Source of the DNA: a virus
IMG/VR virus record: IMGVR_UViG_3300050343_000122
Location: 1-64,000 of that record
Length of the DNA stretch: 64,000 nt
Reading direction: 5' to 3' (one strand)
The notes beneath the pieces were generated by a model that ran no database searches, was not told the origin of the DNA, and saw only the letters and a list, made by a program, of their open reading frames with translations. The translations under genes and the position numbers were made by a program. This document shows, piece after piece, positions 27,401-52,011 of this stretch (its first letter is position 1; the number at the start of each line of letters is the position of its first letter).

Positions 27401-27605
27401 ACGTACGTGCATACATCATACCAGATGCACCTGGAAGACTTCCTCCCATAGCAAACTTATCTAACCAACCACCGTTAATTGCTTTCACAGGCGTAGCACC
27501 TCCAGCTATAGCACCGAAGTATTTCTTCTGCTTATCAGTCAGACCTCTCCCATGGACAGTTCCGTCTTCTAAAATCTTTCTCGCTTTACCTGGTGTTAAT
27601 GCCAT
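24477..27605 (-). CDS. Modular cargo-type protein with two zincin-like HExxH metallopeptidase domains
   Basis: 1042 aa. HENKH (26091-26105) with downstream YLSRPQEVAGR; HELSH (24984-24998) with downstream YIGDPTETRAR; GGWLDK occurs three times. Confidence 0.7.
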   Translation of the reverse strand: MALTPGKARKILEDGTVHGRGLTDKQKKYFGAIAGGATPVKAINGGWLDKFAMGGSLPGASGMMYARTSGTSPEEPKKAQDGTVMYGTPEYKKAYEEGTFADVPNQLDEVVMYSGVDYEKYPYYNDLSAEQRKYFNDDGPIGRGVRRAAYTKRGLAEDTRDMVTGMLVQQPLSALQVPQSLMVEGIQALRGRDANFLNALTFDTQRTPSQVLNIENPVGAIALDIATDPTTYIGAGLFKKPLMAPFTNALKSKPNMYYRGLGQSGLVDASVDAAAPSLRQSLKRGVDNLTNPLSDTRVGLTELMGLLKGGPFKSKFRGFNESGVKAAADFNKTWQKAPGFQTRFDDFTYQFNDPGLTRQVRNNQNLYKRGLEQLKAKQPELFTPSGELSVPLSAIHKMFPRLADDAMLLRRLNDQVVEGANKINYANNARMNVDQIGATGRFTKVMAPTSADDISYFAKNPNTLGFFRASENRSLISLPRFESRFPNLSQRNWKLSRTIAHENKHAMDIGARATKPEYARTIQSAVPQVTDDYTKVLTGAHKKDIQKVYGNIKNLGDDTTESIEYLSRPQEVAGRIDELRMEYIPKKFWGTDKQYEVSDDLINKIISEGKAGKTSVDVRFFKMIKDKKAFKNLFKVLPAVAAPVAIGSIPQQRDGGRCWPGYKTVAGKTPFSKGSCQKAQDGGWLDKFQEGGVIEDNRGQLAHPGKITKINSNNITMKGVNYPVLGISDTGDTKMMQPGVENYTYDGSSVTEYPMAQDGLKLKTATSSFPYINRVPDTSPQVDFLKDWTNSKRGQELLSNSFDGDEKDIERLTYKRINNLDNVDFSIDDHADDFLGRYNRSRHDIKLNSSLLDTSEPKLIGNQDKDVVLHELSHAQDFSPGAEFNRLTIPSSDQKLINKYRKRTLKDTKKLDAPRKVRGDIKDRVNYIGDPTETRARLNSIRYFYETSPIGKEEGMPSIFDSEVTSDMMEVMKDNEQFRELQEVYNDEEILELLNTVSDNTKLSKSSNMGYAKQGESLVSLDQLTNFTNYNTPQPGGWLDKY

Positions 27606-28471
27606 TACTTATATGATATTTGTGCTGGTGCTACAATAAATTGACTAACTATGTGTGTAGTAGATGTATTATCTAATATATGTCTTACCTTTAAATCCTT
27701 TGCTCTAAGTTGTGACTTCTTAAATGATAGGTCACCATAGTTCATGTTATCTTGATTTACCTCCTTATCCAAAGATAGTGATGTACACGGTGTTTCAAAT
27801 AAAGGAACATTACTACTTTTTTGTAATGCCCAAAAAGTATTATACTGATAAAAGTTATCACTTTTAGTGAATACAATCGTCTTACTGTCACTATTTAATA
27901 TAGGATATTGTAAGTATGAACTTAGATCATTCATAGGTTTAGGTACAAGTTCTAGTATACCTGTTGATTGTTGTCCGTTATATAATACAGCTTTATTAAA
28001 GTATTTATTATCTGTCTGAACTTTACTGTTGTCATCAAATGCCCCAACAGTAGAAGGTATATATGTATATGTCTTACTATAATCTTTTATGTTCTGTACT
28101 ATTTGATCATTATACTTGTAATCAAATGGATACTCAATGATGTAAGGAGAAATGTCCCCATAGTAATAGTTATATAAACTATCGTTTCTCAAGTGAGTCC
28201 ACAAACATCCTGTTCTTTTAGGAACAAATTTAGAATTTCTATAATCAAATCCATTTATCTTTCCTTGAACATCAAAAGATTTTACAAACTCGCAGTCCCC
28301 TGTTGAGGTTAGCGTAATAACTCTCACTGCATTTTGTACATCATAGGACACACCTGTTATTAATGTAAACAAAGATACGCCTGTAGCTATAGTATTACCT
28401 AAGTCATCAGTGATTGTAAACGGTCCTACGTTAGGACTAGCAGATGTTATTTTTATACTTATTGTTTTCAT
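27605..28471 (-). CDS. GPF domain fused to the probable C-terminal part of the tail stabilization (muzzle) protein
   Basis: 288 aa. N-terminal SASPNVGPF...ITLTSTGDC domain, followed by LWTHL..YNYYYG..PYIIEYPF...FNKAVLYNGQQSTG. Confidence 0.6.
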   Translation of the reverse strand: MKTISIKITSASPNVGPFTITDDLGNTIATGVSLFTLITGVSYDVQNAVRVITLTSTGDCEFVKSFDVQGKINGFDYRNSKFVPKRTGCLWTHLRNDSLYNYYYGDISPYIIEYPFDYKYNDQIVQNIKDYSKTYTYIPSTVGAFDDNSKVQTDNKYFNKAVLYNGQQSTGILELVPKPMNDLSSYLQYPILNSDSKTIVFTKSDNFYQYNTFWALQKSSNVPLFETPCTSLSLDKEVNQDNMNYGDLSFKKSQLRAKDLKVRHILDNTSTTHIVSQFIVAPAQISYK

Positions 28472-28473
28472 AT

Positions 28474-31400
28474 TTATATATCACAAGCACCTATTAGTGT
28501 GGCTGATGGTCCTAGATCACCAGGTGTATTAGTATTTGCACAAATGAAACTAGTCTGACCTGTTGCAACAGATACAACTTGTTCTATTCCACTACAGTCT
28601 GTATACCTTATTGCTATTGGTCCAGTAATTTCCCACTTAGAACAATTAGGTTGTATACTTGTAGTAGTAGTTGTTGTTGGAGCAAGTGTAGTACTAGTTG
28701 TTGTGGTTGTTGGTCCTGCACTTGGACTAACGCATGATGTAAGTTGAGTTATATTTGTTGGACTAAAGTAGTTTTCGATCTTTCCTTTACCACTAGTAGC
28801 TCCTTCTAGAACTACTTCAAATGGAGAGAAAGGTGCCACAGAAAACTGAGCATATGGGTAAACAGGAGTATTTCCTTTACATACAATTATAATGTCACAG
28901 TCACACGAATGGATTGTTATATCCACTCCACTAAATTCACTACTAGTAATAGTAGAAACTATCTCTGGAGTTACTACTTGGTTATCATAATCCCACTGAA
29001 CATATTCAAATGCTCCTGTTGCTATTACTTCTCTAATTGTTATTAGTTTACCTTCAGTTGTGTATAATAAATTAGTAGGGTATGTGTAACCAGTTTGTAA
29101 AAGAATTTTCGATGATGGGATTCCACTTGTTGTATCTATTTCTACTATAAATCCTTGAGCTGTATCTATTGCAAGAATTGCACTGTCATCTTTAACTACC
29201 ACTCCAGCAGTTGTACCAAATGCATTATCAGCGATTACTAAATCTGAATCTGCTACTACAGTCCATGGGCTTGTTGTAATTGTCCATTTCTTAAATGAAG
29301 TATTAATACCTGGTGAAACTGCGTATAGAGCAGTTGGGCCAACAGCTAACTTACCAGACGTATAGCCAGGAATATTTATATAGGCATAGTTAACCCAATC
29401 TTGTTCTACATTTTGAAGAACTACATTACCATCATCATCATTATAAATAAGTCCACAACATTGATCTAGATCTCCATTAAACATAGTAGTTGTAGTAGTT
29501 AATGTATTACAATCACATGGTACTTGTTCTAACAATATTCCATCTTCAACATAATTAGCAGTTTGATAAGAGTTTATATCTACACTAGTATACCAACCAT
29601 CAGGAACTTTTGTACAAGAATCATCATCACCAAAATAAAGAACTTGTCCTATAGATACGTTAGCACCATTAACATCTGCTCCTGAATATTCGAACGTGAA
29701 GTTTATAGGTACAGCCTCATCATTACTATTTAGATTTGCTAAAAATGCTCCTATAGCACAAGCACTTGCTGCACTTGATGATCCTATAATAGGAGCAGGT
29801 TCAGTCATAATCTGATAACCTTCTGTAAAAGTAGATTGTGAAAGAGGTGAAGGTCTAGAACAAATTGTTGTAGTAGTAGGACTAGGAACAGTAATATATC
29901 CTACACCATCTATGTCACAATTTATTTCTTCTAATATTGATATATCAAGATCACAATCAGGAACATATCCTGTAGTAGTTGTAGTAGTAAATAAAGGATC
30001 AGATGAAGTTGTGGTAGTAGTTGTTCTAATTTCTTCAGGTTCTACCTCTCCAAACCATCCATCCAGATATGGAGTCTCTTCCCCTATTTCAGATCTATCA
30101 GGAGTTTCTAACACTGCTGTAAATTGTGTACAACAGTTATTTATACCAGAATAGTAAAAGTTGTTTTCACCAATGTAGAAATTAGGTAGATAGGAATGAA
30201 AAGATATCCAACTTCTAGTACTAAAGTCAAAAGACATAGTCCAAGATTTGTTACAGAAATACTCTCTATCAAATAAGTATACTTCTTGTTCTTGTTCTGT
30301 TTCTCCTACCGTTACATAAAACTTCTTATTTACAGAATCATACCTTACATCATCGTTAACAGGAATATAGTCTAACTTAGTAATAATTACTCTATCAAAC
30401 CTATTATCATATACACCGTGTAACCCAATGCCATTAAAATGGTTGTCTGTATAAACATCTGGGAAGTATTCTAGAATCTCAAAAGGTAAATGACTTGTCA
30501 TAAATCTATTTACACCTGATCCAAACTTAGTCATGTCTATAACTTTTGACCCAGCCATTAAGAATATCTGACCTCTTTTTGCATCTGCAGTAACTGCTCC
30601 GTATGGAACTTTTAGTAAGAACTTATTTTGAGAACCTACATATCCCAAATCTGTCTCTGCAAAATCTATAGGAGGTGCTCCATCAAACAATCTAGGATTA
30701 CCTATATATGCTGCTTGAGGATTACTGGTATCAATAGTTAGTAACTTGTTATATAGCAAAGCTTTATTTTCAAACCTTGCCAATACAGCCTTATCCATCA
30801 TTCCATCTAAAGATGTTAGATTACCGTAGTTTTGTGGGAAGTCATGGTAAGAAAGAGCTCTATATACTAACCAGTTGTTTACTCTATTATCTGCACTGTC
30901 CCCTTGTGTATCTGAATAAATTGCTCTGAATGGAAAGAATGTATAACATTCAGCTATCCAATCTGGAGGCAGTTGACTAAACACATTTTCTTTGTTCTGT
31001 TTAGAGAATGTTACATTATAGTAATACGTATTATCTTGAGCAATTGGTACATTTGTTTCTTGTAACCAGTCATCAGGAATACCTGAACTTACATGAGGCC
31101 AGAAGTCTCCTTCTTTTGTATTAAATGCTTGCCTTAAGTCTGTATTATATACACTCTCACAATAGAAATTAGGAACACCATATGCCCATAGATACATATA
31201 TCCATCATAAAATGATCTATATGTTCCTGCATAAGACTCTTGATCATTAGGAGGTGGACCAATTAAAGAAGGATCGCTAGGACAATCAAGATTATGTGCT
31301 TTAGTTGATATAAGATTGTACATTAACTGATCAGGGTCGCCTGATGTTACATTATAAGGTTCTAAGATAGATCTTGCCGAATGCCAGTATTTAGGATAAG

Positions 31401-35259: not shown

Positions 35260-35269
35260 ATGCTATTTG

Positions 35270-36286
35270 TTAACTCCTACCGTTACCTCTCCACAAACCA
35301 TATCCATATCTGTTTGAATATCTTCCTGACACTTGAGATTTTGCATCAGGTAATTCATACATATTATTACGATTGAGATCAGTAATAACTCTTCTTTGTT
35401 TTTGATATACTGTTTCTTTCTTAAGTTCTGTTTCTGCCATAATCCAAGACTCATCAGACATTTGTTTATAATAAACTAGTTTTTGTTGTAGCTGATTAAA
35501 TGTTTCATCATTTGTCTGATTTGTTAGAGTTTCAAATACCTTAAACTTAATAAACGATTCTATATATTCTCTTACACGATAATTATCTGGAATCAATTGA
35601 TTTCCTATCTTGTCATAGTCTGTAGAATAGAATACTAAATGAACTACTCCTTTTCTAAAGTTAGTAACAAACTTATTGTCTCTTACATCAAAAGAATCGT
35701 AAGAAGAAGATCCTGGAGTGAACTCACGTCCTGATAAAGCTAACTGATTGTATTGGTCCCAAGAATCTGTATATGCTAAATTACAGCTCTTTCTAGCTGA
35801 GATGTTACCTGGTTTAAGTAGGTATGTTCTTCTATATGCTCTAGGTATTTCACTGTTTGTTTTATATACAGCTTGTACTATCTCAGGCATACATGTCCCA
35901 TCGCAACTAGGATGTTGACAATCAGGATTATTACAGGGAGTACCACCAATAGTTAAAGGAGCAATTTGAATAGTTGTAGCATTTGCAGCCTGACTATAAA
36001 AAGAAGATGCTGCAGGATAAGGGTTTCCTGGAATAACTGCACACATCCAAGCTTCTCTCACAGCATGAAAGTTGTCTGGTAACCTTGCTTCAAAGTCTTC
36101 TATAAATAGAGCCTCTGTAGTAATCTTATATGTTGTTCTTCCCATTTTCCTAAGACACTTATCTAAGTATGTAGGAAATAGTAAATCATCTACAGCACCA
36201 GTATCGAAGTAACTTTTAAGCTCTTCTTTTACTGTAGCGTATAGTGGTTCTGGGGATACAAAATCGTATTTATAATAGTATGACAT
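35270..36286 (-). CDS. Putative tail/neck ring protein
   Basis: 338 aa with LPDNF, FVTNFRKGVVHLVFYS and LIPDN motifs; immediately upstream of the muzzle gene, as in crAss-like phages. Confidence 0.65.
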   Translation of the reverse strand: MSYYYKYDFVSPEPLYATVKEELKSYFDTGAVDDLLFPTYLDKCLRKMGRTTYKITTEALFIEDFEARLPDNFHAVREAWMCAVIPGNPYPAASSFYSQAANATTIQIAPLTIGGTPCNNPDCQHPSCDGTCMPEIVQAVYKTNSEIPRAYRRTYLLKPGNISARKSCNLAYTDSWDQYNQLALSGREFTPGSSSYDSFDVRDNKFVTNFRKGVVHLVFYSTDYDKIGNQLIPDNYRVREYIESFIKFKVFETLTNQTNDETFNQLQQKLVYYKQMSDESWIMAETELKKETVYQKQRRVITDLNRNNMYELPDAKSQVSGRYSNRYGYGLWRGNGRS

Positions 36287-36289
36287 AAC

Positions 36290-36769
36290 TTATTTTTTCC
36301 ATTCGTGATAGGTCTGTTGATATTTAGGATCTGCTTTTATATAATGAGAAAGGTCTCTGGAAGTTCTTCTAGATGGTTTAAAATACCATAAGTCTGAGTT
36401 TCTAAATCTTGCTGTAGATTTAAACCACATCCAACCAAAAAAATAACCTTCTGTATGATAGTTAAAGTTATATACAACTTTTCCTTTCTTTCGTGTCTTC
36501 TGCCAATCAATAGGAAGATTTACAAACTCCTTTCCATTGATGTCTTTAGTTTTTCTTCTTTTCTTCTTATTAATCGAAAACTCTCCAAAACCAGTTGGAA
36601 GCTTTTCTTTCTCTCCTGTTTCTAAAATATAGTGTTTGAATGACTCATTGAAACCATACAGGATATTTCTCCACTCATCAAAAGTTAGAGATATTAAAGG
36701 GTGCTTCTTACAGAAGTCCTCGTAATTCTTTTTACTTGCACTTCGCCAGTCAACTGCTACTCTTGACAT
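36290..36769 (-). CDS. IHF/HU-like DNA-binding protein (crAss-like)
   Basis: Basic protein with LPTGFGEFSINKKK, IDWQKT and WYFKPSR motifs. The start is moved to the ATG at 36769 to avoid overlap with the upstream gene. Confidence 0.65.
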   Translation of the reverse strand: MSRVAVDWRSASKKNYEDFCKKHPLISLTFDEWRNILYGFNESFKHYILETGEKEKLPTGFGEFSINKKKRRKTKDINGKEFVNLPIDWQKTRKKGKVVYNFNYHTEGYFFGWMWFKSTARFRNSDLWYFKPSRRTSRDLSHYIKADPKYQQTYHEWKK

Positions 36770-36779
36770 ATATAATTTA

Positions 36780-37508
36780 TTACTGAGTTGGTTGGGCATT
36801 TGGAGCTTGTCCATCTATGCCTTCGTTACTCATGTCGGTTTTAATTTGGAAGTATGTAGCTAAGAGTTTTTGTGATACTAATCCTAAAGCTGAAGACTCT
36901 AAATAACCTGGTAGAGCATACTCTTTATCCAAAGGGTTTTTACAATATTCTTCATCTGTAACATCCACACCACCACAATCACAATCTGGATACATAATTT
37001 CACTAGGTACATCTTCTTCAAAAAATGCAGATAGTCTGATTGCTTTTAGTAAAGGATTGTTTACATATAAGTATCCATTAGATATCCAGAAGTAATAATC
37101 ATTTTTTACTATTGGTAGTTTCAATAAATTCAAATATCTATTTATAGTTATCTCCTTTAATTTAGTTCCTCTTCCTCCCATAGCATCTACAGAATATACA
37201 CCCTGTATTACATATTGGTAGTTACCTTCCGATATTCTAGGTAGTTTATGTGCAGTTCTGGATACATTACACTCGTCTGCATACTCACAACATTCTGAGA
37301 TGGGAACTTCTTTCATCTCTAGACAAGGAATAGTGGTATATAATGTATCACTAGCCCATAGTTTTCTTAAATTGGTTTCTCTTTTTATCAACATTTGAGA
37401 TGTGTTTCTTATCTCAGAAGCAATAACTCTATCCGTTATCAAAGCATCTGTTGATAAAATCTTATGTGTACCTCTCACATCCGAAACCAATTTTCTTAAT
37501 GTTGCCAT
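36780..37508 (-). CDS. Putative tail tubular/ring protein
   Basis: 242 aa with YFWISNGYLYV..AIRLSAFFEED and C-terminal EYALPGYL; conserved position before the IHF-like gene. Confidence 0.65.
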   Translation of the reverse strand: MATLRKLVSDVRGTHKILSTDALITDRVIASEIRNTSQMLIKRETNLRKLWASDTLYTTIPCLEMKEVPISECCEYADECNVSRTAHKLPRISEGNYQYVIQGVYSVDAMGGRGTKLKEITINRYLNLLKLPIVKNDYYFWISNGYLYVNNPLLKAIRLSAFFEEDVPSEIMYPDCDCGGVDVTDEEYCKNPLDKEYALPGYLESSALGLVSQKLLATYFQIKTDMSNEGIDGQAPNAQPTQ

Positions 37509-37512
37509 TGTT

Positions 37513-37653
37513 TTATTTTTTATAATTACCGAAGCCTTTTATTCCTCCCTCTTGGTCAGCCTCTCTCATATAATTCTTTTTCATATTATAAGGACGCACC
37601 TTGGGAGCTTTTACATTCTTGCCTGGTGTAGGCTTTCCATACTTTGTTGCCAT
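37513..37653 (-). CDS. Small basic hypothetical protein (46 aa, absent from the ORF track)
   Basis: ATG at 37653 to TAA at 37513 gives MATKYGKPTPGKNVKAPKVRPYNMKKNYMREADQEGGIKGFGNYKK, which fills the gap between its neighbours. Confidence 0.6.
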   Translation of the reverse strand: MATKYGKPTPGKNVKAPKVRPYNMKKNYMREADQEGGIKGFGNYKK

Positions 37654-37655
37654 AA

Positions 37656-38897: not shown

Positions 38898-38925
38898 ATG
38901 TATCGTATTTAATTAGAAAATATCT

Positions 38926-39000: not shown

Positions 39001-39003
39001 TAT

Positions 39004-39070
39004 ATAAAACTCCCTAGGGGCGTTTTGCCCCTGGGAGAAGTTCTCTAAAACCAACAAAAGAGAACTTTTT
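39004..39070. terminator. Back-to-back hairpins, probable bidirectional intrinsic terminator
   Basis: CTCCCTAGGGGC/GCCCCTGGGAG (39010-39037) has a T-run on the minus strand; AAGTTCTCT/AGAGAACTT (39038-39067) has a T-run on the plus strand. Confidence 0.8.
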
Positions 39071-39073
39071 ATT

Positions 39074-39739
39074 CTATCTCACATCACTTCCACAACATTC
39101 GTCATAGATCCATGAAAACTCAAAGTCATCTCCAGACGATCCTACCCACTGAAGATCTTCAATAAAACATGGGTTTACTAATGTATTCCCTGATATCTCG
39201 TAGTTGCGTATTGATAATGTACCTTGATTACCGTTTCCATTATTTTGTGTGTTTATCATTTGTACAGTGTTTCTTAGAGTTATTATATCTGGATCAAAAA
39301 AGAACAACTGCATGTTGCTCAAGGGACAAAGAAAGTCTGGTTCAGTTATCACTAACGGTGTATTGCTAGCAACAAATATCGATCCCACTTGAGCATTTTG
39401 ATTTAGATCTAAATTCCCTATTAAGCTCCCATTTAGAAATACATCAAAATTGTCATCTCTTTCTGAGTTCTCATTACAAACCTGAAAGACAGTGACAGTA
39501 TTTGGACAATTTGGAGGTGCGTCTATTTCTCTATCTAGATAAGTATCACAGTCAGGACTAGTAGATATAATTCTAACTACAGCAGTTCCAAAAGGAACGT
39601 TATATGAAACAAATCCTGCAAGTAGTTGATTGCTTGTTACATCTACTTCAAAAGCTTCAGTAAAACCATCAACCTGAGAAAACAAGTTAAAAGGTCCAGC
39701 ATCTGCTCCTATGTTACTAGCTTGTATTAGTATTGCCAT
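39074..39739 (-). CDS. GPF-domain protein with beta-rich C-terminal domain
   Basis: 221 aa. N-terminal GADAGPFNLFSQVDGF...VPFGTAVVRIISTSPDC. Confidence 0.7.
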   Translation of the reverse strand: MAILIQASNIGADAGPFNLFSQVDGFTEAFEVDVTSNQLLAGFVSYNVPFGTAVVRIISTSPDCDTYLDREIDAPPNCPNTVTVFQVCNENSERDDNFDVFLNGSLIGNLDLNQNAQVGSIFVASNTPLVITEPDFLCPLSNMQLFFFDPDIITLRNTVQMINTQNNGNGNQGTLSIRNYEISGNTLVNPCFIEDLQWVGSSGDDFEFSWIYDECCGSDVR

Positions 39740-39753
39740 TTTATATTTTTATT

Positions 39754-40293
39754 TTATTGACAAAGAGTAGTACAACATAAAACTTCATATCCATTTAAAG
39801 CTATCTGTATTGCTGCTACACTTGTGTCAGTTGCACTCGGTCCTATTTTATACCATCCTGCATCCAATTCTAATAGACTTGCTGTTGCTGGGTTTGGATC
39901 ATCATATAAAAAAGACCCAACAGATGGAACATAATTAAAAGTATCACCATTGTGCCAGTACTCAGTTACCGGTAATATAGATGCATCTGAACATGCATCT
40001 GTAGCATTATTGTGAGGTGCTGGAGCATCAAAAAGTCCAAATCCAGATGTATATTGTGAGACAATTGATGCGTCAACATAATTATCACAGTCAGCATTGT
40101 TATTTTTTATTCTCACAATGGTAGTTCCACTAGGAACAAGACTTGTAGATATGTTATAACCTAGTGCACTTGTTAGAATAGTTATAGAAACGTTCGTAGC
40201 AAAGGGTGTTGTATAAAGATCTGCATTTGAATATAGATCAACTGGTCCTGAGCAACTGCCTGCGGATTCTAGTTTTATTGTTAGTGTTGCCAT
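39754..40293 (-). CDS. GPF-domain protein with C-terminal 'AC..GWY..C' module
   Basis: 179 aa. N-terminal AGSCSGPVDLYSNAD...VPSGTTIVRIKNNNADC. Confidence 0.7.
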   Translation of the reverse strand: MATLTIKLESAGSCSGPVDLYSNADLYTTPFATNVSITILTSALGYNISTSLVPSGTTIVRIKNNNADCDNYVDASIVSQYTSGFGLFDAPAPHNNATDACSDASILPVTEYWHNGDTFNYVPSVGSFLYDDPNPATASLLELDAGWYKIGPSATDTSVAAIQIALNGYEVLCCTTLCQ

Positions 40294-40307
40294 TTTATAA
40301 TTTTATT

Positions 40308-41450
40308 TTATGGATCTGGACAATCCTCAATGTTAGTAATACGTCCATTTGTATCAATTTTTATAAGCCAAGTTCCTGGATCAGCTGTAGATATAGACAT
40401 TTGAAACTTGTACCATTTGTTGTCTCCGTTAAATGTTTGAAGTGCTGGAAATATTACATCATATGTAAAATCATTTATTTGTGGTTCAGCAAGTGATCCA
40501 TTTTTCCATAGGAATGCAGCAAGGTCAGCATTACATAAACCAATATTTAGATTTGAACTACTAGTTATTGATCTTATACCAGCTGCAAGAGATGCACTAG
40601 GTGTTGTACTAGTAGTTGTCGTAATTGGAGTTTTAGTTGTTGTAGTACCAGTAAGTGTTACGGTAGGATTATTTAAGGAACAATCACATGTAGTAGTAGT
40701 TGTTGTTGTTGAAGAAGAGCTGGTACTAGTTGTAGTGCTAGTAGAACTAGTAGAACTAGTAGTTGTTGTTGTAACTTCTTTATAAGTATCAGCTATAAAG
40801 GAGAAGTCTACATCAACTCCTGCTCCAGTATAATTAGGACTTAGGGCACTTACAAAACTATCAGTACAGAAAGTACACACATCCTGTCCTTGATATAGTA
40901 TTCCGTCTTTTTGAATTGTATTGATAAAATTGTAAACTCCGACTCTGTTACTATCTATTGTAGCAGAAACTACATCTCCTGGTAAGATTTGAATAGTTCC
41001 ACTTTGTGAAGATGCATTACCTGTAATAGTTGCATCTACAACATTAGTTCCATTAACATCTATTTTTAAGTTACTGCTCTGTGGATCTGCCGCAATTAGA
41101 GAACTTGGAGTGTTTGTTATCAACTCCCAATTAAATCTATTAGGTGGTTGATCTGTTGTAGTGGTTGATGTTGATGTTGAAGTACTTGTAGTAGTTGATG
41201 TACTAGAACTACTTGTTGTAGTTGTTGTAGGACAATTAGTTGGTAGGTCAATACAATTATCACATGTACCAACAGAGCAGACTCTTATAATAGTTGCTCC
41301 TGTAGGAAGTTCAATAACATATCCATTAGTTAAAGTTAAAGCAGGAACTTGTGTTTGAAATGGATTAGTATATCCATCTGCATCTGAGTATAAATCAAAA
41401 GGTCCAGCAGAGCCTCCTGGGGGTATGGTTATGTTTATTTGTATCAACAT
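40308..41450 (-). CDS. GPF-domain, Thr-linker multi-module protein
   Basis: 380 aa. GGSAGPFDLYSDADGY...LPTGATIIRVCSVGTC, then three Thr/Ser tracts separating two modules. Confidence 0.75.
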   Translation of the reverse strand: MLIQINITIPPGGSAGPFDLYSDADGYTNPFQTQVPALTLTNGYVIELPTGATIIRVCSVGTCDNCIDLPTNCPTTTTTSSSSTSTTTSTSTSTSTTTTDQPPNRFNWELITNTPSSLIAADPQSSNLKIDVNGTNVVDATITGNASSQSGTIQILPGDVVSATIDSNRVGVYNFINTIQKDGILYQGQDVCTFCTDSFVSALSPNYTGAGVDVDFSFIADTYKEVTTTTTSSTSSTSTTTSTSSSSTTTTTTTCDCSLNNPTVTLTGTTTTKTPITTTTSTTPSASLAAGIRSITSSSNLNIGLCNADLAAFLWKNGSLAEPQINDFTYDVIFPALQTFNGDNKWYKFQMSISTADPGTWLIKIDTNGRITNIEDCPDP

Positions 41451-41453
41451 ATC

Positions 41454-41705
41454 TTATGGTGTTGGTGTTGTTGTGGTAGTTGTAGTTTGTTCTAATACAA
41501 TATCAAAACTATTTTCACATAATGAATCTGACGTTACTCTTATTATAGTAGTAAAATCAGGAACTACAGTACTAGTATAGCCAGCTAATAAATTAACTTT
41601 AGTTACACCAGTTTCAAAAGCAGCAGTGAACCCATCTACATCTGAGAACAGATCGAAGGGTCCAGTATTGTTTCCTGCAGTTGTTAGTTTAATAAATGCT
41701 TCCAT
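41454..41705 (-). CDS. Stand-alone GPF domain with poly-Thr tail (83 aa)
   Basis: Likely start MEAFIKL at 41705 (TAATG overlap with the upstream gene). AGNNTGPFDLFSDVDGF...IRVTSDSLC, ending TTTTTTTPTP. Confidence 0.7.
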   Translation of the reverse strand: MEAFIKLTTAGNNTGPFDLFSDVDGFTAAFETGVTKVNLLAGYTSTVVPDFTTIIRVTSDSLCENSFDIVLEQTTTTTTTPTP

Positions 41706-42016
41706 TATGATCCGCAACAAGTATTTAGTGTGTTATTTATATTTATAACTTGCTCTTTTATAGCAGAAATATCTGATGTATTAGTTGCTTGTTGAGTCTT
41801 CAATATACAAAGAAGTTCGTCAATTTTAGACAAAGCAACGTTTAAATCATCACAAGGTTCTACATTAGAACAAGGTAATATTGGTCCATTGTATGTAATA
41901 GATTTTGAATAATGTATTCCAGTTTGACATGGATCATTACTTACAGAAGTAGAACAACCACAAGTAGTGTTCACTGCTATATTTGTACAACAAGGATTAG
42001 TGGGTAAGTATGCCAT
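41705..42016 (-). CDS. Small Cys-rich coiled-coil protein, fibre-associated
   Basis: 103 aa. The ITYNGPILPC..VEPCDDLNVALSKID module is shared with 8..403 and 42028..43164. Confidence 0.65.
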   Translation of the reverse strand: MAYLPTNPCCTNIAVNTTCGCSTSVSNDPCQTGIHYSKSITYNGPILPCSNVEPCDDLNVALSKIDELLCILKTQQATNTSDISAIKEQVININNTLNTCCGS

Positions 42017-42027
42017 TGTTTTTAGTA

Positions 42028-43164
42028 TTAAGGTATGTAAATTATATAATATGATCCAATTCCAGGTTGATAATTATTATGTGGTAATCCTCCACCAGTA
42101 GAATTTATTGTAACAGTTGTAGCTACACTTTGACTAACCTCAGTAGTTTTTCCTACAGTAGCTGTATTACTTGCTCCTCTAAGTGCATATCCTAAGTTAC
42201 CACCTGTGCTTTTTGACTGGCGAATATAGTTATTGCTTGTAGGAGGATTTGTTTCATTTGAACTTCCCATAGTTGCAACAAGGTGGGTGTGAGAAGCTGG
42301 ACTAAGTGAAGCTACTACAGTATTAGTGTGTGTATGTGAAGGTATTTGTGCTGTTGTTAATACAACTTGATTTGTTCCAGTAAGGTCATTTACGTTATAT
42401 GTAGGATTTCCACTAACAGACGGATCAACTATTTTATCCATAGTTTGACCTGGCATATCAGTAGCTCCAACAGCTACTCTTCCTCTCATATCTGGTGTAC
42501 CATTGTTTCCATTACATAGAAATATTCTATCCCAAATACCTATTCCTGCACCTGATGCATCAAATGGTGTTAAGTCTCCAAAGTATGGCTGTGCAGAAAA
42601 TGGAACCATTCGATTACTAATAAGCTGTTGCTGAGGATTAGTGTTTAAATAGTTTTCTATATACGTATTAATATCAACAATTCGTACGTAGTTGTTTGTA
42701 ACATCAGTAATAAAAGTGTTCAGTGACTGCTCAACTTCACACAACTTATTTATAGTTTGTTGTAATACATCTGATGTACTTGTAGTATCTGTTACTCCAG
42801 ATACACAGCCTACATCATAGTTTACATCTGATCCTGAACCACCTTCTATCTCACTTACTTCTTCCTGTAATTTACAGATAGTTTTGATTATACCTACTAG
42901 GTAGTTATTTAAAGTTAATGGATTACAGTCATCTAGATTAGCCTGCACTGCAGGGCATATATCTGATGGGGGAACCACAGGTGTTATACCTGTTCCGTCT
43001 AGTGTAGATCCTAAAAAGGTAATAAGAGCTTGCTCCACAAATGATAGGGAGTCTCCATTCTTTATTCCTAGTATAGGAACGTCTACACCTGTATATTTAA
43101 CGCACTTGTCTGAAGTAATTTCAGTACATCCGTTATAACAATTTGAGCAATTTTGTGTTGACAT
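42028..43164 (-). CDS. Short tail fibre with phage tail-collar-like domain
   Basis: LCNGNNGTPDMRGRVAVG, VVLTTAQIPSHTH and GGGLPHNNYQP..YYIIY motifs; Cys-rich N-terminus and coiled coil. Confidence 0.8.
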   Translation of the reverse strand: MSTQNCSNCYNGCTEITSDKCVKYTGVDVPILGIKNGDSLSFVEQALITFLGSTLDGTGITPVVPPSDICPAVQANLDDCNPLTLNNYLVGIIKTICKLQEEVSEIEGGSGSDVNYDVGCVSGVTDTTSTSDVLQQTINKLCEVEQSLNTFITDVTNNYVRIVDINTYIENYLNTNPQQQLISNRMVPFSAQPYFGDLTPFDASGAGIGIWDRIFLCNGNNGTPDMRGRVAVGATDMPGQTMDKIVDPSVSGNPTYNVNDLTGTNQVVLTTAQIPSHTHTNTVVASLSPASHTHLVATMGSSNETNPPTSNNYIRQSKSTGGNLGYALRGASNTATVGKTTEVSQSVATTVTINSTGGGLPHNNYQPGIGSYYIIYIP

Positions 43165-43188
43165 AATTTTATTTATTTGTTTATCACA

Positions 43189-46100
43189 CTATGGTGATGT
43201 TTGTGTTACGCTTAGAGAAATAGCACCTGTTCCTGTTACAAAAAAGTTTCCAGCTACTGGACCTATTAATGTTTCAGCAGCTCCAGTATCGGTATCAGTA
43301 AAACTAGTAAATCCACTAACTTGAAGACCACTTGCTGTTAAAGTGCAGTTTTGTCCTGGGTTACTTGATTTATAAGTTGCTTGTAGATCATAATTCTTTC
43401 CGTTTACTAAAGTAAAGTTGTAAGTTCCATTACTGTTTGGATCAGCAGGATAACTCTCTGAAACATTACCGTCTTCACCATCAAAAGATACAAACTGAAC
43501 TCCGTCTCCAGGATCTTCAAAGTCTATTATAAGGCTTGCAGGTGCAGTTGCAGTAGTAATAGTATCATAAAGCCAAACACTATTACTTACACCTGTTTGA
43601 GTCCAGTTGGGAAAGACAAATGTATAGTCACTAGATGCAGATACAAGACTTGTATCGAATTGCGTTGGTTGAACACTAGTGGTTAGTTTGTGTTCAACAA
43701 AAGTAGTATCGCTTGATAAATTTTCAGTTGTCATTGATGCACTAATAACGTCACCTACTGCTGTCATTATAACACCACCGTCTGATGAATTAGTTGTGTT
43801 TATATTAGAATTTACAACTGTTGTACCATTAATTACTATCTTAAGATTCGCACTCCTAAATAGACTTGATCCACTTGGGTTAGAGTCTCCAGTAAACACC
43901 CAATTCCATGCATACGATTTAGGATCAGGAGTTGTACTTGTAGTAGTTGTACTACTTGTACTTGTTGTTGTAGAAGTACTTGTAGAAGTACTTGTGGACG
44001 TACTAGTAGTACTTGTACTTGTGGATGTACTTGTACTTGTGCTTGTGCTAGTAGAACTACTTGTAGTAGTGGTAGTAGGCACAGGAGTAGTAGTTGTTGT
44101 TGTTGTAGGTATAGGTGTGGTAGTACTAGTAGTTGTACTAGAAGTGCTAGTAGAACTACTTGTAGTAGTAGTGGTTGATCCACAATCTCCATATGCAGTA
44201 ACTTTATAACCATCTCCAGTTGTATGATCAAAGGTAGAAAGTATTGATGATAAGTCATTACCATTTGCATCTATCTTTGAAAATTGGAATGCACTTGTAC
44301 CTGATAACGGACCTGAAGCAGCGTTAGTGCTAACTTTACCATAAGGAACAGTAACTGCTCCAACTCCAACATCAAGAAGTTGATACACTGCTGTATAGTC
44401 TACTCCTCCTATATTAAATACTACATCATAGTTGGTATTTGGAACTTGAGACCAGTTGGTATAACTTGTTGTGTTTGTAGTTGGTCCAACGAAAGATGAT
44501 CGAACATATAGAGAGGGGGTATTCACACCTACAGGACTTGGTGGGTCTGTATACCAGAAGTTATTATCTGTAGTAGTTAAATAGTCAAACTCTAGACATC
44601 CAACTAGTGGTGTAATAGTTGTTGTTGTAGTTGTAGTACTAGAAGTGCTCGTAGAAGTGCTAGTGGACGTGCTAGTAGATGTACTAGTTGAACTACTTGT
44701 TGTAGTAGTAGTTGGTACAGGGGTAGTAGTACTAGTAGTTGTACTAGAAGTACTTGTACTGGTACTGGTACTGGTACTTGTACTAGACGAACTTGTTGTA
44801 GTTGTTGTTAGCTGATCATCTGGACATAAATAAAAATCAAGAAGGCAACCTGCTAACTTATCTCCTACATGTGTAAATATTAGTTCATTAATTCTATCAC
44901 CATTGTTTCTAGGAAATATATTAAATAAAGCACGAGCTGGTTGATCTCCTGAATTCAACTTTGCTTTAAATATCACACTACCATCTGTCTCATTAGAAAC
45001 TATAAAACTATCAGGATTTTCTCTACATACCTGTATAAATGATATATTAAGATCTACGTCAGATGTTACTCTCACTGTTTCATATATTCCTGGATTAGGA
45101 TAATACCCTATACCAGTACAGTAAAATGCCATAGATGATATTGAGTTATCAAATGACATTGTAGATGAAGCACACTTTCCACCACCTAGAGCATATGTAC
45201 CCTGATTATTATATTGATTATTGTGGAAACCTTGTAGTTCACAATCTGGATCAGTTCCATTATTTGCAAGAAGTTGCGAAGAAGAACTTGGAACATATGT
45301 TGTCTCACAATCAGCGTTATCAGATGATAATGTCAGTACAAATCCATTACTTAATGTTTTAACTCCATTTCCAGTGCTTATTCCTGGGAATCCCTCTGGA
45401 GCATCAAAGTTATAAGGTTGGCTACAGTTACCTGAAATAGGAGCTGAACTAGTGGTGGTGGTGGTGGTTTCAGAACCACAGTTATTTTCTAAACTACCTG
45501 TAAATCCTACTTGCCAGTACGCTTCACTTTCACAATATATTATTTTCTGGTCACTTTGTCCATCTATAGTTATATACTCAATTGTATCTGGATCTACTAG
45601 TGGACCAGGAGTAACAAACTGCTGTATACCCATTTGTTCTGCAACCATATCTATTCTACAGGCATAACCATATAGATAACAACCAGCTGCCACCTGAGCT
45701 CCACCAGCATAACATAGTCCTATTATCTTGATAGTTCCCTCTATATCTGCGAGGAGGAGTGATCCTGAATCTCCTGAATATATAGGATTACAACAATATT
45801 CTGTTGTACTCGCATTATCAGGATCTTCTTGAGGAGGTTTAATAAATCTAATAGCATCAGTAAACTTACAATTTACACTAGTTGCTTGTGAACTAGGATA
45901 AGCTATATTTTCAAGCGTAGCATTTATTGATTGAATTAACATAGGACAATCTGGTACAATACCTTTAGGTCCAGTAGTTCTTCCAGTACTATATACACGA
46001 GGGTTTGTAGCTAATATATTATCTATTTCTAATGTAGAAGCAAACGGTGGTGGATTACTACCTAGTATAGACTCTAGTCCTACTTGATTCCATGCAATTG

Positions 46101-46779
46101 TTGGATCCCATCTTGTCGGATCAATGGAAATTATAGCTGCATCTACCTGATTAAATAAACCTGTAGACTTTGCATGAATAGGAACATACTGTAAACTTAC
46201 ACCACAGTTATAACTTGCAGGTGTGGATGCACTTCCAAATTCTCCTTGTTGGTATACATAATCTACTGGACTATATTCATTTACAAGAGCTCCAGTAACA
46301 CTTCTATCAGATGTATAAAATGCATCTTGAATAGTAACGTGATTATTTGTTAAACCAACTGAACAGCCTGTTTCTGAATGTATAACTACACCTCCAAGAG
46401 TACCTACACTAGTTCCATTATTTCTACTAGAAAAAGAAATACCACCTTGTAAATGTTGAAAGAACTGTCTGTTTGCTAGTGAAGTGTTATTTGTTTGTCC
46501 ACAAGTTGAAGAACACGTACCTATAATTTCATGCTTCGCTATTTCTATTACATCTGTTTTTATACTTTTTCCAGATACTATAACACGTGATGGAATATGT
46601 TCATTTATTGAAATCTCAGAAAGAGGCTTCTTTTTTTCTACAGCTATAACTATAGCAAAGTCACCTGTCCACGTTCCATTAACAACTTTTCTTCCCCAAG
46701 CAACACTAGTTACATTAGGAAGTTGCTGAGACAACTCTAATATTCTATCTTTTATTTCTTGTGTTAATAGTCCTTTCAT
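43189..46779 (-). CDS. Chymotrypsin-like (S1, Nal1-type) serine protease fused to Thr/Ser linkers and beta-sandwich modules
   Basis: GTLGG, LTNNHV (His 46339-46341), VDAAII (Asp 46141-46143) and GDSGS (Ser 45766-45768); N-terminal prodomain-like region; long Thr/Ser tracts. Confidence 0.85.
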   Translation of the reverse strand: MKGLLTQEIKDRILELSQQLPNVTSVAWGRKVVNGTWTGDFAIVIAVEKKKPLSEISINEHIPSRVIVSGKSIKTDVIEIAKHEIIGTCSSTCGQTNNTSLANRQFFQHLQGGISFSSRNNGTSVGTLGGVVIHSETGCSVGLTNNHVTIQDAFYTSDRSVTGALVNEYSPVDYVYQQGEFGSASTPASYNCGVSLQYVPIHAKSTGLFNQVDAAIISIDPTRWDPTIAWNQVGLESILGSNPPPFASTLEIDNILATNPRVYSTGRTTGPKGIVPDCPMLIQSINATLENIAYPSSQATSVNCKFTDAIRFIKPPQEDPDNASTTEYCCNPIYSGDSGSLLLADIEGTIKIIGLCYAGGAQVAAGCYLYGYACRIDMVAEQMGIQQFVTPGPLVDPDTIEYITIDGQSDQKIIYCESEAYWQVGFTGSLENNCGSETTTTTTSSAPISGNCSQPYNFDAPEGFPGISTGNGVKTLSNGFVLTLSSDNADCETTYVPSSSSQLLANNGTDPDCELQGFHNNQYNNQGTYALGGGKCASSTMSFDNSISSMAFYCTGIGYYPNPGIYETVRVTSDVDLNISFIQVCRENPDSFIVSNETDGSVIFKAKLNSGDQPARALFNIFPRNNGDRINELIFTHVGDKLAGCLLDFYLCPDDQLTTTTTSSSSTSTSTSTSTSTSSTTTSTTTPVPTTTTTSSSTSTSTSTSTSTSTSTSSTTTTTTTITPLVGCLEFDYLTTTDNNFWYTDPPSPVGVNTPSLYVRSSFVGPTTNTTSYTNWSQVPNTNYDVVFNIGGVDYTAVYQLLDVGVGAVTVPYGKVSTNAASGPLSGTSAFQFSKIDANGNDLSSILSTFDHTTGDGYKVTAYGDCGSTTTTTSSSTSTSSTTTSTTTPIPTTTTTTTPVPTTTTTSSSTSTSTSTSTSTSTSTTSTSTSTSTSTSTTTSTSSTTTTSTTPDPKSYAWNWVFTGDSNPSGSSLFRSANLKIVINGTTVVNSNINTTNSSDGGVIMTAVGDVISASMTTENLSSDTTFVEHKLTTSVQPTQFDTSLVSASSDYTFVFPNWTQTGVSNSVWLYDTITTATAPASLIIDFEDPGDGVQFVSFDGEDGNVSESYPADPNSNGTYNFTLVNGKNYDLQATYKSSNPGQNCTLTASGLQVSGFTSFTDTDTGAAETLIGPVAGNFFVTGTGAISLSVTQTSP
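43930..44176 (-). repeat. Low-complexity Thr/Ser-coding tract (ACT/ACA/AGT repeats)
   Basis: Encodes an ~80-residue T/S/P linker that is a near-duplicate of the 44610-44810 tract. Confidence 0.9.
44610..44810 (-). repeat. Low-complexity Thr/Ser-coding tract
   Basis: Encodes TTTTTSSSSTSTSTS...TTTPVPTTTTTSSSTSTS... Confidence 0.9.
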
Positions 46780-46788
46780 ATCTATGTG

Positions 46789-49551
46789 TTATGCTGGTTC
46801 TGACCCTGCACTGAATTTGGTAAATATTGTTCTTACACCAGGTATAGGTGTAGTAGTGGTAGTTGTTGTTGTTATATCAGGATCTGTTGTAGTAGTGGTA
46901 GTTGTACCAAGTACTGCAAATCCATCATTTGTTCTACATAATGGTAAACTTCCTGAACTTCCACCAAAGTATTCATCTTCGTTTGCTACTTCTTCCCAAA
47001 CATGTGTTTGTAGATTAACTCTATATAATCTAAATCCTCCTGTAGTAATACCTAAAGTTACATATAAATAATCATCAACTACAGCCATATCTCCACCACT
47101 GTTCCAATTACCAACTGGTCCTGGAATCTCTACTTCTAGATTACCTGTGTCATAATCAAACTGAGCAAGTACATATGGTTGAGTTCCATAATTAGATTTG
47201 ACTGCTATAAATTTATTTGGTGTTCCATCTTCTTTAAGGGTAACCACATGTTCACCAGAACCATTAAATGGTTCAGGTATAAAGAATTTAAGTGCAACTG
47301 CTAATGTTGTAGATCCATCTACAAATTCAGCTTCAATCACTTGTTGACCTCCTCCAGCAAAGGAAGAGATACCATACGATAGTACCATTAAGTTGTCATT
47401 AACCGTACTTACTCCAAAAAAAGTAGGAGGAAATATATTAGGTAACCCACTTTGATCTATAGTATAAAGTATACCCTCCCATGTAAAGTTTGAAGGTGTA
47501 CCACTTGGTAATGTGGTATCATAACTCCATCTTGTAAATTGTGTAATTCTATCTCCTTCTGCATTTTTATTGTTAACTTGACCAATAAAATAATTATTAG
47601 TAATATCTGAATTAGGTAGTTGGAAATAGCTACCTCCTGGAAGAGCAATTTCCTCTATAGTATTTGTTACAGTATTTTGTGAATAAACTCTACTATAGGT
47701 TCCATTCAAATTATCAGGAGCACATATTCCATCACTACATCTATATGCAACGTTACGAGTAAATATTCTTGAACAACTTAAAGGAGGGGTGACACAACCA
47801 AGCAGAATTGGTCCCCCAGTTGGTGCATTACCGGATATAGTTATAACAGTAAAGTTGGTAGGAGTTGTTACAATAAACTCTCCATCACCTTCTGTATTGT
47901 AATCTGGCACACCTCCACCTATTCTATTTCCTTGTACTTGTACATTACATCCATTACTTATTGATATAGAAGGTGTTCCTGTATTTGTAGTAATTTCATA
48001 AACGTCCCCAGCACTAAAGTCAGGAGAAGTGTTAAGTACAGCAGCTCTAATAGGAAGATTATTAATAGGACTTTCAAAAGTTAGAGTAATACTAAAATCA
48101 TTACCTTGAACAGTTGTTAACTTATTAGTTGCAGCTGGATTAGATAATCCACTACATCCGCTATTAGGTATACCTCCAACTGGATTTCCTGGTAGTAATG
48201 CTAAGAAGTTATCGTCAGCACTAGCTGTAACCTGAATTCCCTGATATGTAAAAGTAACAGGCCCAATATAGAAGAGGTTATTTTCAGCATCTCGTTCAGT
48301 TAGTGCAGGTATCCAAGTAGCCTCACAATCAGGATCTGTTAATTTAATACCAACATTTGCACAACCAGTTGATGTATGTATCCAAACACTATCGTCAGCC
48401 ACTGTAGTTTCTAATGTAGCATTATATGGTGCTGTTTGACTTATGTTATATACTTCAAGTGTTTCTGGTTGAATTACTTGTATTAATCCATTTACACCCC
48501 ATACAGGCATAGCTTTAGTTGAACCAGTCCATGTAGATGTAAATTCAGGAACACCAGAATTCTGTAAGTTGATTATAGGAGTGTTAGGATTTGGTGACCA
48601 ACTACCAGATGAAGGTAAGCCTGGATATTGTTTAATTCGATTTGAGGCATTGAAATCACTTTGGTCTTCATAATATCTACTAGAAAGAATAACATCACCA
48701 TCATTAGTAATAAACATACCTGTAAGCTCTGTTGTGTGTCCAAAGGTATTACCAAAGCTAACAGTGACTTGATCACTATTATTAAATTCAGTTAATTCAA
48801 TATCTCCAACTGTAGAAATGTCCCATTCGTAAACACCCATAGCAACATTTCCATTAAATCTATCGCTAAACCCTACAAGTAATGTTTTATTATCAGAGGT
48901 TGTAGCTATTGTAGATATTTTAGTTCCCCATATACTTTTGTAATTAAGTGAACTTACAGCAATCGTTATTTCTCTAACATAAGATAAAGTTGGTGCAGAA
49001 CCAGATAGAACTATGTCCCACTCTCTAATGTATGCCACTGTATTATCAGTTGTAACACTAGCCAACCATAACTTATCTTCTGTAGAGCAGATAGGTCTGT
49101 TGATTCCTACAGTAGTTGTAAAGTCATTAGGTACAAGCACAGGACTTGAAGAATTAGTATTAAAGTCATATACAGCTATTTCTCCAGGGTTACCTCCATA
49201 AGTTGACCATGTACATGGTGAGAATGCTGGATAATTAGTACTTGTTGTAGTACTTGTTGATGATGACGTGGTTGTTGTTGTTGTAACATCACAAAGAATA
49301 GATCCAGAAAAATCACAGTTTGGTGTAGCACAAGAATAAATATCTGTTGTATTAGGTGTACACAATGCACCCAAGTCCAACAGTCTAACAGTTATAGTTC
49401 CATCAGGGGCTAATGATGTTTCATACCCAGACAATAGATCCGCTTTACTCACACCTGTCTCAAATGGAGTAATAAACCCATCTACGTTCGAGTATAGATC
49501 AAAAGGACCTGTGTCTGCACCTGCAAAACTTAATGTTATTATTATTGTCAT
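46789..49551 (-). CDS. GPF-domain adhesin-like protein with two beta-propeller-like and one jelly-roll-like module
   Basis: 920 aa. N-terminal AGADTGPFDLYSNVDGF; Thr tracts near both ends; internally repeated beta-rich domains. Confidence 0.7.
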   Translation of the reverse strand: MTIIITLSFAGADTGPFDLYSNVDGFITPFETGVSKADLLSGYETSLAPDGTITVRLLDLGALCTPNTTDIYSCATPNCDFSGSILCDVTTTTTTSSSTSTTTSTNYPAFSPCTWSTYGGNPGEIAVYDFNTNSSSPVLVPNDFTTTVGINRPICSTEDKLWLASVTTDNTVAYIREWDIVLSGSAPTLSYVREITIAVSSLNYKSIWGTKISTIATTSDNKTLLVGFSDRFNGNVAMGVYEWDISTVGDIELTEFNNSDQVTVSFGNTFGHTTELTGMFITNDGDVILSSRYYEDQSDFNASNRIKQYPGLPSSGSWSPNPNTPIINLQNSGVPEFTSTWTGSTKAMPVWGVNGLIQVIQPETLEVYNISQTAPYNATLETTVADDSVWIHTSTGCANVGIKLTDPDCEATWIPALTERDAENNLFYIGPVTFTYQGIQVTASADDNFLALLPGNPVGGIPNSGCSGLSNPAATNKLTTVQGNDFSITLTFESPINNLPIRAAVLNTSPDFSAGDVYEITTNTGTPSISISNGCNVQVQGNRIGGGVPDYNTEGDGEFIVTTPTNFTVITISGNAPTGGPILLGCVTPPLSCSRIFTRNVAYRCSDGICAPDNLNGTYSRVYSQNTVTNTIEEIALPGGSYFQLPNSDITNNYFIGQVNNKNAEGDRITQFTRWSYDTTLPSGTPSNFTWEGILYTIDQSGLPNIFPPTFFGVSTVNDNLMVLSYGISSFAGGGQQVIEAEFVDGSTTLAVALKFFIPEPFNGSGEHVVTLKEDGTPNKFIAVKSNYGTQPYVLAQFDYDTGNLEVEIPGPVGNWNSGGDMAVVDDYLYVTLGITTGGFRLYRVNLQTHVWEEVANEDEYFGGSSGSLPLCRTNDGFAVLGTTTTTTTDPDITTTTTTTTPIPGVRTIFTKFSAGSEPA

Positions 49552-51315: not shown

Positions 51316-51320
51316 ATGTC

Positions 51321-51431: not shown

Positions 51432-51433
51432 AA

Positions 51434-52000: not shown

Positions 52001-52011
52001 AAGAATTATTT

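Follow-up and report, generated by a model that had tools for sequence, protein, structure and literature searches.

What does a protein domain do for a phage that carries it six times, each time at the start of a gene and with something different behind it? The question is raised by the window, our term for the whole 64,000-nt stretch of DNA analysed here, which is the first 64 kb of IMG/VR record IMGVR_UViG_3300050343_000122, a complete genome of 113,502 bp with direct terminal repeats. From PHROG and Pfam matches to terminase, portal, major capsid protein, tail ring proteins 2 and 1 and muzzle, the source of the window is recognisable as a crAss-like phage, and a remote one. Six minus-strand genes share an N-terminal domain of about 72 amino acids (aa), the 'GPF' domain, and an earlier reading of the letters alone (the sequence-only reading) had proposed that it is a universal docking module for interchangeable virion appendages. 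The interpretation that we favour, which we would give about an even chance of being correct, is that the GPF domain is a virion anchor, probably in the tail, that displays swappable adhesin cassettes and is possibly locked in place by a disulfide.

All six open reading frames (ORFs) are present at the starts first assigned to them, and both profile and pairwise comparisons link their N-termini. A profile hidden Markov model (HMM) of the five close copies (starts at 39739, 40293, 41450, 41705 and 49551) scored these copies themselves at E 1.7e-37 to 4.5e-33 and, when run against all six-frame ORFs of the window, picked out the gene starting at 28471 at E 4.8e-5, with the next best ORF at E 1.3; pairwise BLASTP connected all six. 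The 28471 copy had been described as the most divergent. A profile of canonical copies from other phages matched the 28471-gene family with an hhalign probability of 97.2% (E 3.6e-11), by which this gene is a true but old homologue of the GPF domain. A six-frame search of the whole genome found exactly six copies and none beyond those. The paralogue with the highest conservation is GPF-83, whose orthologues in related loci L012-L018 are 82–86% identical; the N-domains of its paralogues are 37–47% identical to it. Its start is the ATG at 41705, not the upstream TTG at 41720, and this ATG overlaps the stop codon of the preceding gene as TAATG. The other copies carry payloads of different size and kind (Table 1). 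Orthologues of GPF-221 measure 216–223 aa, and its payload had no match in the ESM Atlas or in Pfam. Those of GPF-920 measure 894–973 aa, and the earlier description of this protein as a multi-propeller was not confirmed, one weak, sub-threshold Kelch_6 match (E 0.0036) being all that agrees with it.

The sixth gene, directly after the muzzle gene, encodes a 288-aa core protein whose family comprises 2,362 clusters, with lengths of 281–291 aa among the 120 matches listed. AlphaFold predicts residues 1–80 with a predicted local distance difference test score (pLDDT) of 79–94 (10-residue block means) and with the same order of strands and helix as in the canonical domain; for the remainder the pLDDT is below 50. 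Residues 85–288 nonetheless show extreme conservation, dozens of aromatic and charged positions being invariant among 61 homologues. Such a pattern would be expected of a chain whose folding depends on a larger assembly. The suggestion that this protein is half of the muzzle finds no support at the sequence level: neither Pfam crAss_MUZ nor PDB sequences nor phi-crAss001 gp44 (E 0.73 with the 288-aa family HMM) resembled it, the low-pLDDT C-terminal part giving no fold comparison.

How widespread is the domain, and has it a name? HMMER, run exhaustively against 1.84 billion representative proteins, returned 1,741 clusters (at 50% identity) with E <= 1e-3, 1,282 of them at E <= 1e-10, and the family occurs in at least 563 IMG/VR stretches. 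We inspected the best 150 representatives and the best 80 of these stretches, a sample in which rare fused or internal forms could be missed. In 148 of the 150 the domain starts no later than residue 11; in two short proteins it begins at residues 23–24, where the start was probably called too far upstream. The representatives are 78–520 aa long (median 190), and their usual layout is the domain, a poly-Thr linker and then a small Cys-rich part that varies between clusters. Among 185,579 prokaryote genomes, tblastn confirmed seven contigs only. Six belong to metagenome-assembled genomes (MAGs): five of these are long enough for the phage gene order to be recognised in them, and the other measures just 1.7 kb. 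The seventh contig comes from an isolate genome, and its match is weak and partial. The family is thus viral only. The MAG contigs L088-L092, which have the structural gene order of the window, bear the labels Woesearchaeota, Chthoniobacter, Tissierellales, Cytophagales and Sediminibacterium; these are probably viral sequences that binning assigned to unrelated MAGs.

The view that the domain belongs to no named family held up. The six proteins gave nothing usable against Pfam (E <= 1), PHROGs or NCBIfam, the Kelch match of GPF-920 staying below threshold. PDB sequence searches with protein P0001, the muzzle protein and the domain profile gave no match, nor did tblastn searches of 50,697 cultured-phage records with GPF-83 and a consensus-like family member; the domain HMM found nothing significant among the phi-crAss001 virion proteins gp21–gp44. 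In the ESM Atlas, GPF-83 retrieved unnamed viral clusters only. In BFVD, the sole significant structural matches were five uncharacterised proteins of the uncultured Virus NIOZ-UU157 (939, 417, 287, 77 and 77 aa; Foldseek E 2.8e-7 to 5e-4, TM score up to 0.91), which resemble the window in having the same paralogue set. These proteins carry no annotation, and so they add to the distribution of the family and not to its function.

In the AlphaFold model of the domain (pLDDT 89.8), seven strands form a compact sandwich, accompanied by one short helix. The domain's VIA matches include many FN3 domains (Z 5.0–6.0, root-mean-square deviation 2.3–3.0 A over 66–71 residues), and Foldseek against the PDB gave no match at E <= 1e-3. 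We are confident from this model that the fold class is an FN3/Ig-like beta-sandwich, a generic fold that does not imply homology. Three more specific identities were considered and rejected. The first residues form strand 1 of the confident model and are not a signal peptide. Likeness to the C-terminal sorting domain of the type IX secretion system, an Ig-like domain of about 70–80 aa that ends secreted proteins, is generic only (Z 4.9–5.5), and the GPF domain stands at or near the N-terminus in 150 of the 150 proteins listed, the wrong protein end for such a signal. Dockerin (Pfam PF00404) is a duplicated Ca-binding helical (F-hand) module of about 70 aa, usually C-terminal, that binds the repeated cohesins of a scaffoldin; seven beta-strands with a short helix and no Pfam match at E <= 1 speak against it. 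The comparison with dockerin and cohesin, drawn by the sequence-only reading, thus survives in its logic, one constant module on many payloads, and fails in the fold, the GPF domain being an N-terminal beta-sandwich and dockerin a helical, usually C-terminal module. No cohesin-like repeated receptor was noticed in scans of the tail module, although no systematic search for one was made.

The clearest view of how payloads change comes from pairs of nearly identical phages. Loci L076 and L063 share 98.2% identity across 3,082 nt that stop where the poly-Thr run stops, continue into unrelated payload segments of 196 and 572 nt, and return to 98.3% identity just past the stop codon; L074 and L042 show the same pattern of payload replacement. 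Read from the alignment, one cassette has been replaced by another, with a breakpoint at the poly-Thr linker and the other end of the exchange at the 3' end of the gene. Over longer distances, GPF genes change far faster than their neighbours. Between the window and L012-L018, identities are 83–97% for the exonuclease, ring 2 and ring 1, as against 51–86% for GPF N-domains, 30–91% for payloads and 14–86% for whole GPF genes. The claim of a constant N-terminal module with variable payloads is well supported by these replacements, by the unrelated C-termini across the best 150 representatives and by modules that recur in the muzzle and in a protease-adhesin protein (below).

The exchange also bears on a possible role as tail-fibre assembly chaperones or tip-bound accessory proteins of the Tfa type, whose variable C-termini would match the fibre tips. 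Tfa proteins likewise combine a conserved N-terminal with a variable C-terminal part, and a GPF gene lies downstream of the 378-aa tail-fibre gene. That fibre gene, however, stays 98% identical while the adjacent payload changes, which means that the two do not vary together. In size the payloads run from nothing to 850 aa, and they are poly-Thr-linked and disulfide-rich, all of which are marks of displayed extracellular modules; a scan of the six proteins against the whole Pfam library gave no tail-fibre assembly match at E <= 1. We consider a Tfa-like role very improbable.

Are the six copies then freely interchangeable? In a quick tree of N-domains, with branch support from the SH-like approximate likelihood ratio test (SH-aLRT), the 83-, 380-, 179-, 221-, 920- and 288-type copies each cluster with the genes at the same position in other genomes (support 87–99%); only the 83-, 380- and 288-type clades reach 95% or more, the 380-type clade with 99%. 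By this tree the paralogues of the window are old, orthologous lineages with N-domain subtypes of their own. The proposal of a universal, interchangeable adaptor is not supported for the paralogues of this subclade, which are separate lineages and not freely interchangeable copies. In near-complete relatives the copy number is 2, 3, 4 or 6, and the minimum set is one canonical copy plus the divergent muzzle-adjacent copy. Where the canonical copy is single, it ranges from about 83 aa (domain and poly-Thr tail) to about 310 aa. Payloads can also be lost, as in 179-type members of 72–79 aa and 221-type members of 71 aa in some relatives. GPF proteins of at most 105 aa make up 77 of the 198 in the loci, a few of them cut by contig ends. 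That so many copies are domain-only indicates that the domain has a role of its own and that the payload is optional.

To what might such payloads correspond? Just three of the 150 representatives matched Pfam, one of them with an ice-binding-like domain. This protein, the metagenome protein library representative P0082, carries the domain (PF11999, E 1.2e-48) directly behind the GPF domain, and this phage protein may act in ice binding or as an adhesin. Payload modules are also found outside the GPF genes: one module of the GPF-380 payload recurs in the 1,196-aa protease-adhesin protein, and the C-terminal ~520 aa of the muzzle form a long extension of poly-Thr-linked modules, the last of which, a 4-Cys module, is homologous to GPF payloads of other phages (BLASTP E 8e-8 and 1e-6). 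The muzzle of phi-crAss001 forms the distal end of its tail (PMC10172136). Given this location, the sharing suggests that modules of the payload type are displayed on at least one known outer part of the tail.

This bears on two further accounts. In one, GPF proteins would work off the virion, in or on the infected cell, for example at the host surface, and the domain would be a targeting or oligomerisation module; a family with no annotated member leaves room for this. The N-termini are not signal-peptide-like, however, the genes are embedded, co-oriented and tightly packed in a structural operon, and the modules held in common with the muzzle point to the particle, so that we regard a non-virion role as highly unlikely. 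In the other account, they are capsid decoration or head-fibre proteins comparable to T4 Hoc, T5 pb10 or phi-crAss001 gp21/gp29, with the N-domain on the capsid lattice and the payload serving weak adherence to surfaces or particles. Small Ig-like proteins made up of an anchor and a displayed part are typical decoration proteins, optional payloads and variable copy number suit non-essential decorations, and the ice-binding payload suggests general surface adhesion; the head fibres of phi-crAss001 consist of an N-terminal capsid-binding part and a C-terminal Ig-like part (PMC10172136). Against this, the genes lie among fibre and tail-barrel genes away from the capsid genes, the first GPF gene is translationally coupled to the gene after the tail-fibre gene, the shared modules are those of a distal tail protein, and there is no similarity to Pfam Head_fiber_dimeric or Phage_head_fibr. 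We judge decoration to be quite unlikely.

The position of the GPF genes is itself conserved. Across 86 related loci the gene order runs from capsid-proximal genes through the genes for 188-aa and 328-aa proteins, a variable region, the 378-aa tail fibre and a 103-aa Cys-rich protein to the GPF gene or genes, and on through an SbcD-like exonuclease, ring 2, a 174-aa protein, ring 1 and the muzzle to the 288-aa protein. A homologue of the 103-aa protein adjoins a GPF gene in 72 of the 86 loci, mostly at a distance of at most 37 nt and often overlapping it, and the 378-aa fibre is present in 83. The 103-aa protein is a candidate partner of the GPF domain, and the 378-aa fibre, which also has a weak match to T4 Gp10_C (E 0.0029), is a candidate docking platform for GPF proteins.

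Table 1. Positions in the window of the GPF-domain genes and of the features around them (nt, numbered from the first letter of the window).
Feature	Position	Strand	Evidence and remarks
288-aa core protein	27605..28471	minus	Divergent GPF-like domain at start (about 28262-28471)
Muzzle protein, 2,261 aa	28474..35259	minus	Pfam crAss_MUZ PF25731, E 2.1e-33
Muzzle, last 4-Cys module	28474-28680	minus	Homologous to GPF payloads of other phages
Muzzle, C-terminal extension	28474-30040	minus	Poly-Thr-linked modules
Tail ring protein 1	35270..36286	minus	Pfam CrAss_Ring_1 PF24228, E 6.9e-8
Tail ring protein 2	36780..37508	minus	Pfam CrAss_Ring_2 PF25702, E 3.4e-20; marks tail barrel module just downstream of GPF array
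SbcD/Mre11-like DNA repair exonuclease	37656-38897	minus	PHROG 704, E 2.5e-53; between GPF array and ring 2
GPF-221	39074..39739	minus	Domain and beta-rich payload of ~145 aa
GPF-179	39754..40293	minus	Domain and payload of ~100 aa containing Cys
GPF-380	40308..41450	minus	Domain, then beta modules joined by poly-Thr/Ser
GPF-83	41454..41705	minus	Domain (about 41490-41705) and short poly-Thr tail; single Cys
103-aa protein	41705..42016	minus	10 conserved Cys, coiled-coil-like C-terminal region; translationally coupled to GPF-83
378-aa tail-fibre protein	42028..43164	minus	Cys-rich N-terminus; PHROG tail fiber/tail protein, E 5e-17 and 1e-20
1,196-aa protease-adhesin protein	43189..46779	minus	N-terminal protease-like region, PHROG 20754, E 8.5e-12; then very long Ser/Thr tracts and beta modules
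GPF-920	46789..49551	minus	Domain and large payload with poly-Thr linkers
Stretch of ~750 nt between 328-aa gene and GPF-920	49576-50329		No coding-strand ORF of at least 60 aa
328-aa protein gene	50329-51315		In relatives, conservation confined to first ~115-150 aa
188-aa protein gene	51434-52000
Major capsid protein	55185-56750	minus	PHROG/Pfam
Portal	58220-60802	minus	PHROG/Pfam
Terminase	60802-62823	minus	PHROG/Pfam
Cys-rich tail-module stretches	35270-37508, 41705-43164, 50329-53234	minus

The same position admits a more structural interpretation, in which GPF domains themselves build the tail collar or fibre hub in place of the THA and THB proteins, the paralogues co-assemble into hetero-oligomeric hubs and the payloads are accessory. 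Searches of all six frames of the whole genome with Pfam crAss_THA (PF25724) and crAss_THB (PF25711) gave no match at E <= 10, and as a control the two models do recognise phi-crAss001 gp38 and gp39. The GPF genes stand just upstream of ring 2, the place of THA/THB in phi-crAss001; every near-complete relative checked has at least one canonical copy, often domain-only; and the paralogue lineages are stable and specialised. On the other hand, the THB of phi-crAss001 looks largely helical as read from its sequence, its THA is about 215 aa, and neither resembles the GPF domain in sequence or stands among the domain's top 50 structural matches, a listing of generic matches. By size and order the 188-aa gene and the first ~115 aa of the 328-aa gene would fit THA/THB better, and GPF genes evolve far faster than core tail genes. 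Hub replacement therefore strikes us as unlikely.

The cysteines suggest how an anchored protein might be held. Exactly one Cys lies within the domain in 131 of the 150 representatives, at a nearly invariant position near the domain end, and domain-only proteins mostly have that Cys alone (34 of 47 in the loci, 4 of 4 among the representatives). For the payloads, the Cys count is even in 120 of 146 representatives. A single Cys in the domain combined with even numbers in the payload leaves the lone Cys without a partner inside its own protein. The surrounding tail module is Cys-rich as well, with 10 near-invariant Cys each in the 103-aa protein and the 378-aa fibre, 9 in a 379-aa protein, 7 in ring 2 and 6 in ring 1, which suggests that the tail of this clade is heavily disulfide-stitched. 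In phi-crAss001, disulfides join one fibre hub to another and the hubs to the rings (PMC10172136), and by analogy an intermolecular disulfide through the lone Cys may reasonably be proposed. The Cys counts of the neighbouring tail proteins are odd in several cases, which does not single out one disulfide partner.

Taken together, the fixed place in the tail module, the translational coupling to the 103-aa gene and the fast divergence of GPF genes would favour a virion anchor. In such a system, the domain would fasten its own protein to a fixed site on the virion, most probably the fibre/hub complex formed by the adjacent 378-aa and 103-aa proteins or by an unrecognised hub, with the C-terminus facing outward. 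The poly-Thr, mucin-like linker would then present either nothing or one or more small disulfide-rich modules for adhesion or enzymatic action, the conserved unpaired Cys at the domain end may lock the protein to its partner through an intermolecular disulfide, and phage populations would re-tip the protein by recombination at the linker. By gene duplication the lineage would have acquired five specialised paralogues that form a stable set, the ancient sixth copy being part of the muzzle-adjacent core protein. Several observations weigh against such an anchor. The 147 representatives in which Pfam found no match leave the payload functions without assignment, and fold matches as generic as these (best VIA Z 6.0) are uninformative on function. 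The usual anchor of a phage fibre is trimeric, unlike a monomer-type Ig-like domain. Domain-only members imply a dispensable payload, which fits a purely structural role equally, and the divergence of the paralogue N-domains into old separate lineages argues against one universal socket.

Modular receptor-binding proteins of phages, among them T7-like gp17, the anchor and branch tailspikes of Klebsiella and G7C/CBA120-type phages and the shoulder-neck-head proteins of lactococcal phages, combine a conserved N-terminal virion anchor with exchangeable C-terminal binding domains. The GPF proteins share with them a conserved N-terminus with a hypervariable C-terminus, genes in the tail/fibre module, horizontal exchange of C-terminal cassettes between near-identical phages and several differently tipped copies per genome. 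They differ in having an anchor of the monomer type and of FN3/Ig-like fold, without sequence relatives in the reference libraries, in joining it to the payload by poly-Thr, in that many members are payload-free, and in payloads that are tiny Cys-rich modules instead of trimeric beta-helix or fibre tips. The architecture would thus be of a known kind with a new anchor domain, one that is small, Ig-like, often present alone and may be covalently locked. Small Ig-like modules at the virion surface, with optional adhesive display and variable presence, are also found in T4 Hoc, T5 pb10 and phi-crAss001 gp29; GPF proteins differ from such decoration and head-fibre proteins in their tail context, in the lack of any sequence or Pfam relation and in that the Ig-like part would be the anchor and not the displayed part.

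Another close system is that of phi-crAss001, whose fibres have a hub of THA2-THB in which residues 1–26 of gp22 are docked; gp22 in turn bears additional fibre proteins as branches, and disulfides stabilise the tail (PMC10172136). The window phage belongs to the same virus order, with ring 1, ring 2 and muzzle, and shows a similar branched, multi-protein appendage logic and a Cys-rich tail module. It has, however, no detectable homologue of THA, THB or gp22, its fibre genes lie beside ring 2 and not beside the portal gene, and its docking element would be a folded domain where phi-crAss001 uses a 26-residue peptide.

A bolder version of the anchor interpretation, which we put forward tentatively and with considerable doubt, is that virions of this clade have fixed sockets that take any GPF-headed protein and hold it covalently through the lone Cys, so that cassette swaps at the poly-Thr joint re-equip the particles with adhesins or enzymes, even an ice-binding module. 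This would amount to natural, disulfide-locked phage display with a docking domain of a kind not previously described. In any case the family is among the larger unannotated virus-only protein families, in a globally distributed and abundant marine crAss-like lineage, and a profile of the domain would be an immediate gain for the annotation of marine viromes. If the domain is a constant anchor, it would provide a handle for locating receptor-binding genes of uncultured phages, would let the evolution of host range be followed in metagenomes from the turnover of cassettes at the poly-Thr joint, and might serve as a compact tag of ~72 aa for loading foreign domains on particles.

The large genes of the window are on the minus strand throughout. 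The GPF-containing region gave no DNA-level match (megablast) among the cultured-phage records searched above, and the major capsid protein matches just one cultured phage, Leptolyngbya phage Lbo-JY46 (25.6% identity, with 95% of the length aligned), which is neither a Bacteroides nor a Cellulophaga crAss-like phage. Relatives of the window phage are present in Tara Oceans data; published marine Crassvirales clades have ~34% GC and predicted Bacteroidota hosts (PMC13558084, PMC11502894). The coding strand has an ORF-poor interval between the 328-aa gene and GPF-920 (Table 1). The exonuclease gene, for which a tail module is an odd site given its part in DNA metabolism, is kept at that spot in 71 of the 86 related loci. 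The gene for the 1,196-aa protease-adhesin protein follows the 920-type GPF gene in the window and in relatives such as L008-L011, L020 and L022-L029, and this pairing holds even where the block has shifted relative to the fibre gene.

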